A stretch of DNA of 40,010 nucleotides from Escherichia phage vB_Eco_Titus. Position numbers and translations under genes: made by a program. Shown piece after piece: positions 34,179 to 40,010 of the stretch. The notes below the pieces were generated by a model. That model saw nothing but the letters and a program-made list of their open reading frames with translations, made no database searches and was not told the origin of the DNA. Within the stretch, counting starts at the first letter, position 1. Each line of letters starts with the position of its first letter. The stretch lies in sequence record OX090892; one strand, given 5' to 3'.

Positions 34179-34202
34179 GAATTAACACCCACTATTGGAG
34201 TA
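34179..34202 (+). promoter_or_regulatory. Phage RNAP promoter (GAATTAACACCCACTATTGGAGTA), +1 G at 34197; phiOR equivalent
   Basis: Promoter family; downstream of terminase at the right genome end. Confidence 0.6.
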
Positions 34203-34460: not shown

Positions 34461-34499
34461 TCTCGGTATCCTTATCAGTCTACCTACGATTAAGTGTCT

Positions 34500-34630
34500 A
34501 GTGTCAATACCCTTATGTTAGTGACCTTATGTGTTAACCTTAGGGTAGGTTGGTCTTAGTGTCGCCTACCTTATGTTGTTAACACTATGTTAGTCCATTT
34601 TGTACAACACTAGAAAAATCTGAGTGACCA
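34500..34630 (+). repeat. Array of short CCTTATGT-type repeats on the right-end side of the terminal repeat
   Basis: CCTTATGT at 34511, 34525, 34569 plus degenerate copies; analogous to T7 CCTAAAG-type short repeats flanking the terminal repetition. Confidence 0.5.
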
Positions 34631-34810
34631 TCTCACATATCAAGACCCATTTAATCCCCCCATAGGGGTCAAACCTTATGTCCATCCCTTATGTCATTCC
34701 CTAAGTCTATCATTTTGTCTATCAATAGGTTTTAACTCTCGGTTGAGGTGGGGACAATAGGTGGAGACTATGGGTTTGTATCTCTATGTCTCCCTATCTG
34801 TATAGACCTT
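34631..34810 (+). repeat. Terminal repeat, single collapsed copy (approximate bounds)
   Basis: Starts TCTCACA...CCCCCCATAGGGGTC and contains GTCTCCCTATCTGT, matching remembered T7 terminal repeat landmarks; only one copy in window, consistent with a circularised or concatemer-junction representation. Confidence 0.4.
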
Positions 34811-34945
34811 GTGTCTCCTCTCTATGTCTCTACCCTTATGTCTCCTCTCTATGTTCTATCAACTAGGCAGCATCCTACCTTATGTTAGACCCTAGGTCAA
34901 TAACCTTATGTCATAGACCCTATAAATAGACCTTATCTATATAGA
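34807..34945 (+). repeat. Array of short CCTTATGT-type repeats on the left-end side of the terminal repeat
   Basis: CCTTGTGT 34807, CCTTATGT 34834, 34878, 34904, CCTTATCT 34931. Confidence 0.5.
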
Positions 34946-35239: not shown

Positions 35240-35489
35240 TCCACAACAAACAGGGTCACACAGTATGTACACCTGATGGATTTGCGATGAATGCTCGTGT
35301 TGAACGACTGAAGCGTGAACTCAAGATGAATCGTATGCTGAACAACATCTAATAGCTACGATAATCAAGCAACACTGCTGGTCTTGTTGTACTACGCAAC
35401 TGCAAATGTAGTCGGGACGATGAAACTGCTATCCCTAAAGTTCTTTAACAATCTGGTATAAAGCGCATGTGTTGAGTTAGAAAGTGATT

Positions 35490-35525
35490 GACTCAAGGCT
35501 GCTGAATGTAGTAGCCTTTATGACA
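35490..35525 (+). ncRNA. RNase III processing-site hairpin (R0.3-like) ahead of RNAP gene
   Basis: GACTCAAGGCTGCTGAATGTAGTAGCCTTTATGA; preceded by TTCTTTAACAATCTGGTA, conserved with remembered T7 sequence upstream of R0.3. Confidence 0.5.
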
Positions 35526-35565
35526 AGCATTTAATTTCAGCCACTATAAGATGGAGACAACAACA

Positions 35566-38250
35566 ATGATTAACTTTGATAACATTCAGCGTAATGACTT
35601 CTCTGATGTGAAGAACGCCATTATGCCATTCAACGTACTGGCTGATGCTTACGGTGAATATCTGGCAGGTGAACAACTGCGCTTAGAGCATGAGTCCTAC
35701 CAGATGGGCGAGGAACGTTTCATCAAGGCGTTCGAGTCTGCCTGTAAGCGCGGTGAACTCGGTGATTCTCTGGTGGCTCGCCCGTTACTGGAAACCTTGG
35801 TTCCTGCACTGAGTGAAGCAACTAAAGCATTCTTAGCTCAAGGTGGTCGTGGTCGTCCGCATGTGTCTAAGCAATACCTGAGCCGTATTGACACCGACCT
35901 TGCTGCCTTTATCACCATCAAAGTTGTGCTGATGTCCTTGGGTTCTCCTGCGACAGGCAAAGTAAACAACCACGGTGCTGTAACTGGTGCTAACATGCAG
36001 TCAGTCTGTATGTCTATCTCCAAGGCTATCGAGGAGGAGTGCCGCTTCGGTCGCATTCGTGAAGAAGAAGCACAGCATTTCAAGAATCGCGTTAAACCAT
36101 CGCTGGATAAGCGCCAAGGTCTGCTGTACAAGCGTGAGTACATGAAGGCTGTTGAAGCTGGCATGATTGCTAAAGGCGAGTTGGATAGTCACTTTGAGGA
36201 GTGGCCGCGCGATGAAGCATACCATGTTGGTGTCAAGATGTTGGAGCTGCTGATTGAATCAACTGGTCTGTGCGAGATTGTACGCAAGAACGCTGGTAAT
36301 CCTAAGTTAGACCGCTACGAAGTGGAACTGACCGAAGAATACGCTGACAAGCTGACCTCTCGTGTGTCTGCCTTGGCTGGTATCTCACCTGTTAAGCAAC
36401 CTTGTGTAGTACCACCTAAGCCTTGGACTGGTATCATCGGCGGTGGCTATTGGGCAAAAGGTCGCAAGCCTTTGCGTCTGATTCGTACCGGAACTAAACG
36501 CGCTCTGATGCGCTACAACGATGTGGATATGCCAGATGTGTACAAAGCTATCAACATCATTCAGAACACCGCTTGGAAGGTCAATGCGGACGTGCTGAAG
36601 GTAGCTAACGAGATTGTCTACTGGAAGCATTGCCCTGTTGAAGACATCCCACAACTGGACAAGCTGGATAAACCTGTACGTCCTGAAGGTATTGATGAAG
36701 ATGAAGCCCTGCTGAAGAAGTGGAAGAAGAACGCTGCGACCATCTACCGCAAGGAGAAAGCCCGTCAGTCTCGCCGCTTGTCTCTTGACTTCATGATGGC
36801 ACAAGCTAACAAGTTCGCTCAGTACGATGCCATTTGGTTCCCGTACACAATGGACTGGCGCGGTCGTGTATATGCTGAGCCAATGTTTAACCCACAAGGT
36901 AACGACCTGACCAAAGGTCTGTTAACTTTCGCTAACGGCTGTGAGCTGGGTTCTGAAGGTGCTTACTGGCTGGCGGTGCATGGCTCCAACTGTGCGGGTG
37001 TCGATAAAGTATCACTGGACGACCGCGTTAAGTGGGTGTACGAGAACGAAGAAAACATCTTGGCATCCGCTGAGAACCCATTAGACTGCACTTGGTGGGC
37101 GGAACAAGACTCCCCATTCTGCTTCTTAGCATTCTGCTTCGAGTGGGCAGGGTACGTTAAGTCTGGCCGTAGTGAAGGCTATGTGTCTCACCTGCCACTG
37201 GCATTCGATGGTACTTGCTCCGGTCTGCAACACTTCTCTGCAATGCTGCGTGATGAAGTTGGTGGTGCTGCTGTTAACCTGCTGCCTGCTGACAAACCAC
37301 AAGACATCTACGGTATTGTTGCCCAGAAAGTAAACGTCCTGTTGGAGCGTGACCTGTTGAACGGCACCGAGGACAGCACCAAGATTGTTGTCGATAAGAA
37401 GACAGGTGAACAGATTGAGAAGTTTGTTCTGGGTACACGTAACGCTGCTAAACAATGGCTGCAACACGGTGTAAACCGTAGCGTAACCAAGCGTTCTGTG
37501 ATGACTCTGGCATACGGTTCCAAGAAGTACGGCTTTGCCGAGCAAATCATGGAGGATACTTTACGTCCTGCCATTGATAAAGGCGAAGGTAATCAGTTCA
37601 CTGCACCTAACCAAGCTGCAATGTATCTGGCTGGTCTTATCTGGGACTGTGTATCAACTACCGTAATCGCTGCGGTACAAGCTATGGAATGGTTGCAGAA
37701 GTCCGCTGCTCTGATTAGTTCAGAAGTGCGAGACAAGAAGACCAAGGAGCTGTTAAAGCCTGCTCTGCCTATTCACTGGACTACTCCTAACGGGTTCCCT
37801 GTTTGGTCAGAGTACATGATTCAGGAGGAGAAGCGCATTGAAGCGACTCTGTTTGGTGAACTGCGTATCCGCAACACTATCAAGCTGCGTGATACCGCCA
37901 AGATTGACGCTCAAGCTCAGGCTTCTGGTATTGCACCTAACTTCATCCATAGCAACGATGCGTCTCACCTGCAAATGACCGCTGTGTACTGCCACGATGT
38001 GTACGGGATTGTTGACTTTGCATTCATCCACGACTCATTCGGTTGTCACGCTGGTAAAGCTCACCTGCTGTTCAAAGGTGTGCGTGAGACAATGGTTAAG
38101 ACTTACAGTGAACACGATGTAATCGCTGAGTTCTATGAGCAATTCGCTGAGCAACTGCACGAGTCCCAACTGGACAAGATGCCAGCTCTTCCTGAGAAGG
38201 GTAACTTAGACCTGAACGAAATCCTGAAGTCACTGTACACTTTCAGTTAA
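35566..38250 (+). CDS. 1: DNA-directed RNA polymerase, single-subunit (T7 gene 1 homologue)
   Basis: 894 aa from ATG 35566 (GGAGA 8 nt upstream; in-frame ATG at 35551 lacks an RBS); very high similarity to T7 RNAP throughout (PFN.LAD.YGE, QPCVVPPKPWTGI.GGGYWA, RKSRR.SL.FM..QANKFA, WAEQDSPFCFLAFCFE, VTKRSVMTLAYGSK, HDSFG, QLHESQLDKMPALP). Confidence 0.97.
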   Translation: MINFDNIQRNDFSDVKNAIMPFNVLADAYGEYLAGEQLRLEHESYQMGEERFIKAFESACKRGELGDSLVARPLLETLVPALSEATKAFLAQGGRGRPHVSKQYLSRIDTDLAAFITIKVVLMSLGSPATGKVNNHGAVTGANMQSVCMSISKAIEEECRFGRIREEEAQHFKNRVKPSLDKRQGLLYKREYMKAVEAGMIAKGELDSHFEEWPRDEAYHVGVKMLELLIESTGLCEIVRKNAGNPKLDRYEVELTEEYADKLTSRVSALAGISPVKQPCVVPPKPWTGIIGGGYWAKGRKPLRLIRTGTKRALMRYNDVDMPDVYKAINIIQNTAWKVNADVLKVANEIVYWKHCPVEDIPQLDKLDKPVRPEGIDEDEALLKKWKKNAATIYRKEKARQSRRLSLDFMMAQANKFAQYDAIWFPYTMDWRGRVYAEPMFNPQGNDLTKGLLTFANGCELGSEGAYWLAVHGSNCAGVDKVSLDDRVKWVYENEENILASAENPLDCTWWAEQDSPFCFLAFCFEWAGYVKSGRSEGYVSHLPLAFDGTCSGLQHFSAMLRDEVGGAAVNLLPADKPQDIYGIVAQKVNVLLERDLLNGTEDSTKIVVDKKTGEQIEKFVLGTRNAAKQWLQHGVNRSVTKRSVMTLAYGSKKYGFAEQIMEDTLRPAIDKGEGNQFTAPNQAAMYLAGLIWDCVSTTVIAAVQAMEWLQKSAALISSEVRDKKTKELLKPALPIHWTTPNGFPVWSEYMIQEEKRIEATLFGELRIRNTIKLRDTAKIDAQAQASGIAPNFIHSNDASHLQMTAVYCHDVYGIVDFAFIHDSFGCHAGKAHLLFKGVRETMVKTYSEHDVIAEFYEQFAEQLHESQLDKMPALPEKGNLDLNEILKSLYTFS

Positions 38251-38314: not shown

Positions 38315-38812
38315 ATGGTTGACTTTTCTGCTGTTGCTGCTGTTGGTTGTGGTGTTCTGAGCATTGTGTCTTGCGTCCTGATGTCTAAGCGAAGCATGGA
38401 CAAGGAAGACATGAAGGTACTGCGCGGCCAAGTCCATGAGTTGAACCAAAAGCTGAAGGCTGAAAAAGAGTACAACGAGTACATGAAGAAAGACTACAAG
38501 TCACGCGAGATTGACTGGATGGGCAAGGTCATTGATGAACAACGGGTAGCCAAGGTGCTGCGTGACGAGTTAGGTAAAGCACGTAAGCAACTGAACGAGA
38601 AGTTACAACCTGCTACTGTGCAGTGTGACGGGGTGTCTATCCGCTTGGACTCCAAGACTTCAATGAACTTCTCGGTAGGAAAAGTGATTAAAGAACTGTC
38701 ACTCTCTGTGCTCGGTAACACTGTGACGGTCACTGTAGTTAAACACAATGGAATTGTTAAATCACATACATTCCAGAACGTGAGCTATAGTTACCGACAA
38801 GCGCAGCAATAA
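38315..38812 (+). CDS. Membrane-anchored coiled-coil protein (165 aa), unknown function
   Basis: AGGAGGA RBS; N-terminal TM helix (FSAVAAVGCGVLSIVSCVLM), charged coiled-coil segment, beta-rich C-terminus; first gene after RNAP, upstream of a terminator-like hairpin. Confidence 0.65.
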   Translation: MVDFSAVAAVGCGVLSIVSCVLMSKRSMDKEDMKVLRGQVHELNQKLKAEKEYNEYMKKDYKSREIDWMGKVIDEQRVAKVLRDELGKARKQLNEKLQPATVQCDGVSIRLDSKTSMNFSVGKVIKELSLSVLGNTVTVTVVKHNGIVKSHTFQNVSYSYRQAQQ

Positions 38813-38822
38813 CAATAACTTA

Positions 38823-38856
38823 GGGTAGTCTGTAATGGGCTACCCTTTTGTCGTTT
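38823..38856 (+). terminator. Intrinsic terminator-like hairpin with T-rich tail (candidate early terminator)
   Basis: GGGTAGTCTGTAATGGGCTACCC (8-9 bp stem) followed by TTTTGTCGTTTG, 10 nt after the stop of the 165-aa gene. Confidence 0.55.
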
Positions 38857-38867
38857 GTTAATGCCAC

Positions 38868-38891
38868 TAATTAACACCCACTATTGGAATA
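38868..38891 (+). promoter_or_regulatory. Phage RNAP promoter (TAATTAACACCCACTATTGGAATA), +1 G at 38886; first of a tandem pair
   Basis: Promoter family; tandem arrangement analogous to T7 phi1.1A/phi1.1B. Confidence 0.6.
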
Positions 38892-38970
38892 TAATGACAA
38901 TAACACTAAGTCTATAAACATTAAGTCTATAACTTATTGTCTATACATTTTGTCTTATTGTTATATTAAT
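38892..38970 (+). other. AT-rich segment with AAGTCTATA repeats between tandem promoters; candidate primary replication origin
   Basis: High A+T (..TAATGACAATAACACTAAGTCTATAAACATTAAGTCTATAACTTATTGTCTATACATTTTGTCTTATTGTTATATTAATTA..); T7 primary origin is the AT-rich region by the tandem phi1.1A/B promoters just downstream of gene 1. Confidence 0.4.
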
Positions 38971-38994
38971 TATTTAACACCCACTATTGGAAAC
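38971..38994 (+). promoter_or_regulatory. Phage RNAP promoter (variant TATTTAACACCCACTATTGGAAAC), +1 G at 38989; second of tandem pair
   Basis: Promoter family; 35 nt upstream of the methyltransferase ATG. Confidence 0.6.
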
Positions 38995-39023
38995 ATTAAG
39001 TCTAAACACTAAGAGGAAACATT

Positions 39024-39749
39024 ATGTTAGGTGGAGCACCATTTCAGATTGTACAACCTAAAGAGCCAGTGAAGTTCGGTGGATTAGGTCACGCTAATGT
39101 AGGCATAAAGTCATTACCTAAAGACCGTGGTGTATCATGGTCTGACTTCTATAAGGGTCGCTTAGGTCAGTCCTATGTTAGTCATGTGTACAAGAACTAT
39201 AAGGTACATATTGAAGCTATTCGCAGATACATCATTCAGCTATCGCTCAGTAAGAACAGCTCAATCAAACCACTACGTGTAGTCGAAGCTGGTTGTGGTA
39301 TCGGGTCTATCACACTGAACCTTGCTGATATGTCAGACCATAAGACAGTTATCTGCTCAGGCTTTGATGTGTCAGAAGGACAAGTTGTTAACTCTCGTGA
39401 GAACGCATTGCTTAACAATGTGGGTGACAGAGTGTCCTTTCATAAAGGTGACATCTTTAATAGTGACGTATATAAAGATGCCCACATCATTCACTCTCAT
39501 GGTGTCTTAGAACACTTCAGTGACGATGACATTATGAAAATCCTATTGACACAACTCAGTTCTCCTAACGTTCGGTATGTCATTCACTATGTACCACTGG
39601 AAGGATGGAAGACTCCCTCTTATGGTGATGAACGCCTGTTACCGCTGACACATTGGGTCAATGAGTTCGCTCCTACCCGTACCGTTGCGTTCAACGATGG
39701 TAAAGACGCTGTGCTAATCTGGGACGTTGAGTCTTTACTTCGCAATTAA
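39024..39749 (+). CDS. Class I SAM-dependent methyltransferase (241 aa), substrate unknown
   Basis: AAGAGGA RBS; Rossmann motif I VVEAGCGIGSITLNLA, acidic residue after beta2 (GFDVSEGQ), GDIFNSD, HIIHSHGVLEHFSDDD typical of small-molecule/RNA methyltransferases; no DPPY/NPPY DNA-MTase motif. Confidence 0.65.
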   Translation: MLGGAPFQIVQPKEPVKFGGLGHANVGIKSLPKDRGVSWSDFYKGRLGQSYVSHVYKNYKVHIEAIRRYIIQLSLSKNSSIKPLRVVEAGCGIGSITLNLADMSDHKTVICSGFDVSEGQVVNSRENALLNNVGDRVSFHKGDIFNSDVYKDAHIIHSHGVLEHFSDDDIMKILLTQLSSPNVRYVIHYVPLEGWKTPSYGDERLLPLTHWVNEFAPTRTVAFNDGKDAVLIWDVESLLRN

Positions 39750-39766
39750 CACCCACTATTGGAGAA
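39743..39766 (+). promoter_or_regulatory. Phage RNAP promoter (CAATTAACACCCACTATTGGAGAA), +1 G at 39761
   Basis: Promoter family; overlaps methyltransferase stop; precedes ligase. Confidence 0.6.
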
Positions 39767-39847
39767 CATCGTGTATGAACACTGCTGATATTCTCGCTAT
39801 CAACTCTATGTTTCAATCCTTATACAAATCCATTGGAGGTAATTCAA

Positions 39848-40010
39848 ATGTTTACAATCAATCCGGCAAAGCCAGTAGCGTACAAAGAGTCAGCGATTCA
39901 GAAAGCTCTGGACAAGTCCGGTTCCCTAATCGCAGACCGCAAGTACGATGGAGTCCGTTGCCACATCGTGATTAAACCCACGGCTGACATCAATGGTCGT
40001 CCTGCTGCCC
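39848..40010 (+). CDS. 1.3: ATP-dependent DNA ligase, N-terminal part (T7 gene 1.3 homologue); 3' end cut by window edge, continues in frame at 1..809
   Basis: GGAGG RBS; MFTINPAKPVAYKESAIQKALDKSGSLIADRKYDGVRCHIV matches T7 ligase N-terminus including adenylation lysine motif KYDGVR. Confidence 0.85.
   Translation, partial: MFTINPAKPVAYKESAIQKALDKSGSLIADRKYDGVRCHIVIKPTADINGRPAA

Follow-up and report, generated by a model that had tools for sequence, protein, structure and literature searches.

In the Escherichia phage vB_Eco_Titus (sequence record OX090892), a single gene on the + strand at 39024-39749 occupies the slot that in T7 holds genes 1.1 and 1.2, and its product of 241 amino acids (aa) resembles a methyltransferase. 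What would such an enzyme methylate, and what would a T7-like phage gain from it? The window referred to throughout is the whole stretch of DNA analysed, 40,010 nucleotides (nt) long, and all positions are counted in it. An original prediction, made from the letters alone, proposed a class I S-adenosylmethionine (SAM)-dependent methyltransferase lacking the hallmark motif of DNA amino-methylases. The reading favoured here, with a probability of about 40%, is that the protein is a catalytically competent class I methyltransferase of a near phage-only family, that it acts on a small polar acceptor, and that it is encoded by an accessory gene of host takeover or counter-defence.

A class I methyltransferase without DNA-methylase motifs

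The coding sequence (Mak_003 / BAMTRB_004 in the records of related phages) opens with an ATG located 6 nt downstream of a Shine-Dalgarno sequence, AAGAGGA, read directly at 39011-39017 (+). In the list of open reading frames (ORFs), nothing longer than 62 aa overlaps it on either strand. Comparison with an 85%-identical metagenomic relative (L007) gives a ratio of non-synonymous to synonymous substitution rates (dN/dS) of 0.21. Because ORF, ribosome-binding site, motifs, Pfam matches and dN/dS agree, the 241-aa gene of the original prediction is real and under selection.

The protein passes the curated Pfam cut-offs of Methyltransf_31 (41.2 bits, cut-off 27), Methyltransf_25 (35.4, cut-off 27) and Methyltransf_11 (22.4, cut-off 21.2). 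An AlphaFold2 model (predicted local distance difference test, pLDDT, 87.5; predicted template modelling score, pTM, 0.84) consists of a seven-stranded Rossmann core preceded by N-terminal helices. Motif I, E88-AGCGIGS95 (39285-39308, +), forms the SAM-binding glycine loop after β1. Its residues E88, G90 and G92 are invariant, and the pattern E/D-x-G-x-G-x-G is present in 161 of 165 family members (here and below, invariant columns come from a 72-sequence alignment and motif counts from a census of 165 members). The acidic residue of motif II, D115 (39366-39368, +), is likewise invariant and stands at the end of β2, which spans residues 109-115 in the model. In class I enzymes this acid contacts the ribose hydroxyls of SAM, and the role is given to D115 on that basis. 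D143 is the second downstream acidic motif residue. Motif I, the acid at the end of β2, the seven-stranded sheet and the Pfam scores together support the class I SAM-dependent assignment, with the SAM-binding motifs intact. Profile searches thus confirm the methyltransferase fold but assign no subfamily, since the NCBIfam equivalog cut-offs are all missed (ChlM 42.8 against 158.9, UbiG 22.2 against 102.95, BioC 19.4 against 184.95).

The domain map differs in part from the one first proposed, in which an N-terminal extension of about 70 aa had no known function. An add-on does exist, but it comprises only codons 1-37 (39024-39134, +), which encode a basic segment (isoelectric point, pI, 10) that is predicted to be disordered and is specific to the Mak-like clade. 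Codons 38-75 (39135-39248, +) instead encode a helical lid that is a conserved part of the methyltransferase domain. The first residue of nearly all homologues lies 1-6 positions ahead of W39, at about residue 38, and in the AlphaFold2 model pLDDT falls below 50 at residues 1-9, 17-29, and 32-35. In the homologue P0002 the extension carries substitutions at 9 of 37 residues with its reading frame intact, and V16, encoded here by an internal GTG, is replaced by alanine. Loss of this codon supports the ATG start and excludes a conserved start at the internal GTG; the same comparison weakly favours selection on the extension. The lid is built of helices 39-44, 49-58, and 60-74, modelled with confidence, and bears the conserved residues W39, Y43, R46, Y51, and Y59. 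In an hhalign alignment, Y59 pairs with Y36 of HENMT1, a tyrosine that hydrogen-bonds the SAM carboxylate (PMC10781085).

Three further motifs serve as signatures of the family. The post-β4 motif H159-GVLEH-F165 (39498-39518, +), each residue of which is 97-100% conserved, lies at the site of (D/N)PPY in DNA amino-methylases, so that the motif IV position holds S-H-G-V-L-E-H-F instead of (D/N/S)PP(Y/F/W/H). The family-specific motif H188-Y-V-P191 (39585-39596, +) closes β5 and is found in 157 of the 165 members, and the loop that follows β5, S199-Y-G-D-E-R-L-L206 (39618-39641, +), is a family signature present in 164. The missing DPPY/NPPY motif of the original prediction is therefore confirmed, and its absence extends to the motifs of C5-methylases and to the target-recognition domain. 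Neither [DNS]PP[YFWH] nor PC[QS] occurs in any of the 165 members (ENV occurs in 4). The members are only ~165-200 aa long and the model contains nothing beyond the Rossmann core and the N-terminal lid; a size of ~170-200 aa leaves no room for target recognition. Judged from these sequence features, a canonical DNA methylase is very unlikely.

A family nearly confined to phages

A search of 5.8 billion proteins retrieved 283 relatives. Three are 241-243 aa long and 85-93% identical to the window protein, and the remainder, of ~170-200 aa, cover residues 38-233 only. With a family profile, 264 clusters (defined at 50% identity) were found at E<=1e-30 among 1.84 billion cluster representatives, nearly all of them stand-alone proteins that start at the first positions of the profile; the close relative P0003 scores E = 2.1e-59. 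Members of about 165-200 aa match the profile end to end. The window protein carries all the family signatures (HGVLEH, HYVP, S[FY]GDERL, and the W-x3-Y-x2-R lid), and its sole difference is the 37 extra N-terminal residues. Extensions at either terminus occur in 13 members, and those that were scanned gave no Pfam match and no hint of function.

Conservation is high over the whole domain. Invariant positions number 21 (W39, Y43, Y51, Y59, E88, G90, G92, D115, G160, L162, E163, H164, Y189, V190, P191, G201, D202, E203, R204, L205, and W211), and R46, H159, H188, S199, N224, and D228 are among the near-invariant ones. This set is larger than the SAM site explains, which counts in favour of a defined acceptor. 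The family is slightly acidic, with a median pI of 6.1 and a median net charge of -3, unlike typical nucleic-acid binders.

Every genomic context inspected is phage-like. T7-like genomes share the order RNA polymerase, small ORF, methyltransferase, ligase, and in Aeromonas Chaseviridae the gene lies near the start of the deposited records. It is also found in 65-kb enterobacterial phages and on 100-440-kb contigs, amid long runs of small genes with no known function, and 80 loci were retrieved from IMG/VR. Among 50,697 GenBank phage records the gene is present in 13 (10 phages), labelled "hypothetical" every time. The 185,579 species-representative genomes contain only 15 loci, all on contigs of metagenome-assembled genomes (MAGs) and none in an isolate genome; the MAG bins linked to carrier phages extend from Proteobacteria to Bacteroidota and Spirochaetota. 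Outside phage genomes and phage-like contigs the family is all but absent; it occurs sporadically and moves horizontally. No characterised member was found in the literature, Pfam has no dedicated family, and PHROGs has no specific group for it.

Neighbourhoods were compared at 93 loci, representing 32 methyltransferase groups (60% identity), and only one gene recurs beside them, that of an ATP-dependent DNA ligase. The ligase shares the locus in 7 of the 32 groups (L013, L003, L022, L036, L083, L092, and the window), at a distance of three genes or fewer in 6 of them, on phage contigs that are otherwise unrelated. This adjacency probably reflects a common early DNA-metabolism module. A distribution that is near phage-only and sporadic, in early or DNA-metabolism gene arrays, makes a role in host takeover or anti-defence plausible.

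Candidate acceptors

The nearest profile relatives belong to the Tam/BioC/ChlM clade, which are small-molecule carboxyl O-methyltransferases (Pfam Methyltransf_11/25/31). In hhalign comparisons Tam is the best match (97.5%, E = 5.5e-12), followed by Hen1 (95.9%, E = 5.3e-9), BioC (94.3%), and UbiG (93.2%); the control sequences for E. coli Tam, UbiG, and BioC are approximate. Of the NCBIfam models, BioC (35), ChlM (27), and Tam (21) match the largest numbers of the 72 aligned members, all far below cut-off. The clade shares with the phage protein the Rossmann fold, motif I, the motif II acid, and an N-terminal helix with a SAM-binding tyrosine. In contrast, the phage protein is much shorter, is near phage-only, and has a C-terminal half of its own, with HYVP and S[FY]GDERL. 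Foldseek comparison with the PDB places the α-keto-acid C-methyltransferases MppJ and SgvM first, then CurJ, METTL6, ChlM, and CtHen1. Identity to MppJ, SgvM, and MrsA is 12-14%, and their N-terminal dimerisation domain of ~150 aa is absent here. The viral structures of BFVD contain no close match, only generic methyltransferases of <=19% identity, and PHROGs returned generic methyltransferase matches only.

The acceptor is best guessed to be either a small, polar metabolite or the side chain of a protein, and these are favoured over nucleic acid because of the acidic pI, the small-molecule enzymes among the nearest families, and the broad range of MAG bins. Given this breadth, many bacteria probably have the acceptor in common, most likely in the form of a small polar metabolite or a nucleotide-like compound. 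In the mechanism proposed, the acceptor would be held by W39, Y43, R46, and Y51 of the lid and by a polar cluster at the ends of β4 and β5 (H159, E163, H164, H188, Y189, D202, E203, and R204). These two strand ends lie side by side in the class I fold, next to the methyl group of SAM. The cluster might provide a general base or bind a metal that assists catalysis, and the acceptor would be rich in oxygen or nitrogen. DNA bases would not be methylated, at least by the canonical route.

Several observations weigh against a small polar acceptor. The clustering of the polar residues is suggested by fold topology only. All hhalign and profile alignments end just after β4 and thus cover the N-terminal half, and a profile of the C-terminal half finds no sequence relative in the PDB (best E = 0.07, a designed repeat protein). 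Of the two halves, the SAM-binding one is therefore generic and the acceptor-binding one peculiar to the family. The best single-sequence match in the PDB is an archaeal protein-lysine methyltransferase (E = 3.7e-4), the fold matches include METTL6, Hen1, and an RNA methyltransferase, and minimal methyltransferases of comparable size include protein and RNA enzymes. Finally, the neighbours at the 93 loci of the 32 groups include no recurrent gene of known anti-defence function.

Some of these points lead to a protein substrate. The enzyme could methylate a conserved host protein of translation, transcription, or defence at Lys, Glu, Gln, or His, much as other early enzymes of the T7 group modify host proteins broadly. 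The two top single-sequence PDB matches, 5fa8 (the one cited above) and 5jwj (E = 8.3e-4), are both archaeal protein-lysine methyltransferases, and their alignments are the only ones that run through β5. Weak matches to the NCBIfam models prot_lys_mtase_Arch, PrmC, and HemK, a compact size suggestive of an open active site, and a near-neutral pI compatible with a protein substrate point the same way. However, the lysine-methyltransferase model matches 3 of 72 members against 35 for BioC, the NPPY motif of PrmC/HemK is missing, and all scores are far below the curated cut-offs. A protein acceptor is thus unlikely, though the most probable of the alternatives.

An RNA substrate is somewhat less probable again. 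The acceptor would be tRNA, rRNA, or the 3′-terminal ribose of an RNA or nucleotide, in one version through metal-assisted 2′-O-methylation as carried out by Hen1. For this comparison the HENMT1 sequence (100% identical to 4xcx) was aligned with CtHen1 and the alignment used in hhalign. Besides the score given above, E163-H164 pair with the metal ligands E135-H136 of Hen1 and Y59 with the SAM-binding tyrosine (PMC10781085), D202-E203-R204 recalls the D-H-(K/R) motif of Hen1, and the only recurrent neighbour of the gene is an ATP-dependent ligase. Of the four metal ligands, E-x-x-E-H ... (D)H (PMC10781085), however, the first, E132, is replaced by an invariant glycine (G160). The motifs TPN and DHxFEWTR are missing and the alignment ends after β4; Tam outscores Hen1, and no Hen1 chain is found among the 60 best PDB profile matches. 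The neighbouring ligases are DNA ligases with no accompanying end-healing enzyme, and there is no Pnkp partner. The slight acidity of the family speaks against RNA in general. No lysine is conserved at >=75% anywhere in the family, and there is therefore no K-D-K-E tetrad of the RrmJ/FtsJ type.

Membership of the Hen1 family itself was considered and rejected, as G160 takes the place of one metal ligand, the alignment stops short of the D-H motif, and both C-terminal motifs are absent from the consensus. HENMT1 and CtHen1 both display TPN and DH(K/R)FEWTR, and the profile of the C-terminal half finds no Hen1 chain.

A further possibility dispenses with a specific acceptor. An abundant protein that burns or sequesters SAM, or raises S-adenosylhomocysteine, would starve SAM-dependent restriction, BREX, or host methylation, and so would parallel the T3 SAM lyase in function. 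SAM is a known target within the T7 group, through T3 gene 0.3. That lyase is likewise a T7-group accessory protein acting through SAM, although its fold, chemistry, and genome position differ and the analogy is speculative. The intact SAM-binding motifs and the high expression predicted from two tandem promoters and a strong ribosome-binding site are consistent with a SAM sink, and so is the absence of two other genes: ocr and the T7-type kinase, which the near-identical relative L007 has, are not found by tblastn anywhere in the window. Conversely, many of the 21 invariant positions fall outside the SAM site, which points to a specific acceptor, and ocr and the methyltransferase occur together in L007 and hence are not alternatives. 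We know of no precedent for such a sink, and it is given little credence.

A DNA methyltransferase guarding phage DNA against restriction or methylation-based defence is the most improbable reading, for although the PADLOC model mad2, the methyltransferase of a methylation-associated defence system, matches the window protein (E = 1.6e-10) and, at about 1e-10, 51 of 72 members, and PHROGs adds a weak "DNA methyltransferase" match (E = 0.0014), the mad2 match is partial, confined to the generic SAM-binding half (residues 43-165, 39150-39518; model positions 266-370 of 492), the setting is a lytic phage genome rather than a defence operon, the family is slightly acidic, the whole protein is no more than a Rossmann core that lacks a target-recognition domain, and amino- or C5-methylase motifs occur in none of the 165 members.

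Genomic setting and biological meaning

Positions 38800-40010 of the window are 100% identical to the Escherichia phages vB_Eco_Mak (OX001577.1) and vB_Eco_Bam (OW991346.2), T7-like members of Autographiviridae/Studiervirinae with genomes of 40,137 bp each. Both records label the ORF "hypothetical protein," and that of Mak adds the note "Methyltransferase domain." The one paper found that names phages Mak and Bam is concerned with taxonomy. Relative to these genomes the window is rotated: the RNA polymerase gene occupies 35551-38250, and the ATP-dependent DNA ligase gene begins at 39848-40010 (+) and resumes at window position 1, extending to 809, according to the annotation of OX001577.1. The window end is co-linear with L007 across the junction, in agreement with this view.

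The Bam record also annotates two short ORFs as hypothetical proteins, and both calls are probably spurious. BAMTRB_003 (42 aa, 38884-39012, +) lies within the AT-rich spacer between phage promoters described below, and BAMTRB_005 (82 aa, 39727-39975, +) overlaps the start of the ligase gene in a different frame. A separate ORF of 165 aa (38315-38812, +) follows the RNA polymerase gene and precedes the methyltransferase. Its N-terminal segment is hydrophobic and its middle Lys/Glu-rich and coiled-coil-like, and it belongs to no Pfam family. It is kept beside the methyltransferase in L007 and L008 and is missing from the Aeromonas phage PZL-Ah152.

Just 3′ of the 165-aa ORF, a terminator scan found a terminator-like hairpin with a T-rich tail (38822-38856, +; hairpin 38822-38846). 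Its 11-bp stem and loop of 3 fold as RNA with -15.6 kcal/mol (z = -3.6 against shuffles), and it is the probable end of early transcription by the host polymerase. A tandem pair of phage RNA polymerase promoters follows. The first, TTAACACCCACTATTGGAA (38871-38889, +), is likened to T7 phi1.1A, and the second, phi1.1B-like, lies at 38974-38992 (+), 32 nt 5′ of the ATG. The spacer between them (38890-38973) is AT-rich, with 22-28% GC in the composition profile, and origin-like as in T7. We take it to be the analogue of the T7 primary origin, and the flanking promoters to be those of phi1.1A and phi1.1B, from established knowledge of T7. A further promoter, with perfect consensus, at 39746-39764 (+), overlaps the TAA stop of the methyltransferase gene (39747-39749) and drives the ligase gene.

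In all, TTAACACCCACTATTGRAG has 16 matches in the window, every one on the + strand, where 0 are expected by chance. The consensus is TTAACACCCACTATTGGAG, and the same repeat family was recovered by a separate repeat search. The copies are at positions 878, 1019, 1928, 6686, 9644, 11556, 14397, 15374, 19746, 27951, 34182, 34952, 38250, 38871, 38974, and 39746, that at 38250, 5′ of the 165-aa ORF, being weaker (3 mismatches).

Because a terminator-like hairpin and two tandem phage promoters precede it, the methyltransferase gene probably heads the class II genes, which the phage polymerase transcribes, and is probably not among the early genes transcribed by the host. The "early placement" of the original prediction is thus right as to location and imprecise as to timing. 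In the proposed scheme the phage RNA polymerase would transcribe the gene from both promoters, as the first after the origin-like region, and a strong ribosome-binding site would support its translation.

The slot itself was correctly identified, as the gene sits between the origin-like promoter and spacer region and the ligase gene (39848). T7 has a promoter and origin arrangement of the same kind, from phi1.1A/B and the origin to the ligase gene 1.3. Genes 1.1 and 1.2 are likewise accessory genes of the early-to-middle transition. The likeness noted is one of position: the T7 slot encodes two small proteins, gp1.1 and gp1.2, the latter an inhibitor of the host dGTPase, and the slot in the window a single 241-aa enzyme.

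Divergence from L007 is mosaic within the gene. The synonymous substitution rate (dS) is ~1.0 over codons 38-154, 0.04 over codons 1-37, and 0.18 over codons 155-241, and the intergenic 211 nt 5′ of the gene are 100% identical. Such a pattern implies recombinational exchange, and codons 38-154 (39135-39485) look like a patch from a more distant allele.

Elsewhere in the genome, a block of ~1.5 kb that L007, a relative of 92-97% identity, carries between a 0.6-like ORF and the RNA polymerase gene (L007 760-2287) is absent. The block contains ocr, two small ORFs, and a T7-type protein kinase. Window positions 35481-35551 align to both of its flanks, so that a direct repeat of ~70 bp brackets it, which fits deletion or insertion by repeat recombination. 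Dense short direct repeats of CCTTATGT / CTCTATGTCTCC units fill 34499-34925, 3′ of the terminase gene and between the promoters at 34182 and 34952, and are probably the genome-end or concatemer-junction repeats typical of T7-like phages.

What the locus now offers is a corrected domain map, the exclusion of DNA methylation as judged by canonical motifs, and a defined orphan family of 264 clusters. An E. coli host and a small T7-like genome make knockouts easy, and the enzyme is a reasonable, not an urgent, target for biochemical screening. A bolder proposal, which we consider a long shot, is that this phage-only family of minimal, possibly metal-assisted methyltransferases disarms the host by methylating a small molecule of universal occurrence (a second messenger of immunity, the precursor of one, or a nucleotide- or NAD-derived compound) or by draining SAM. 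If true, counter-defence through metabolite methylation would work in a new way and could explain the recurrence of the gene in the early arrays of unrelated lytic phages. Under the favoured reading, a small polar acceptor methylated by a competent enzyme, the accessory gene would pass horizontally between phages and serve host takeover or counter-defence. Should the acceptor prove to be a host metabolite, a signalling nucleotide, or a conserved host protein, the family, spread over T7-like phages, Chaseviridae, and large-phage contigs, would represent a new type of phage tool for takeover or counter-defence.

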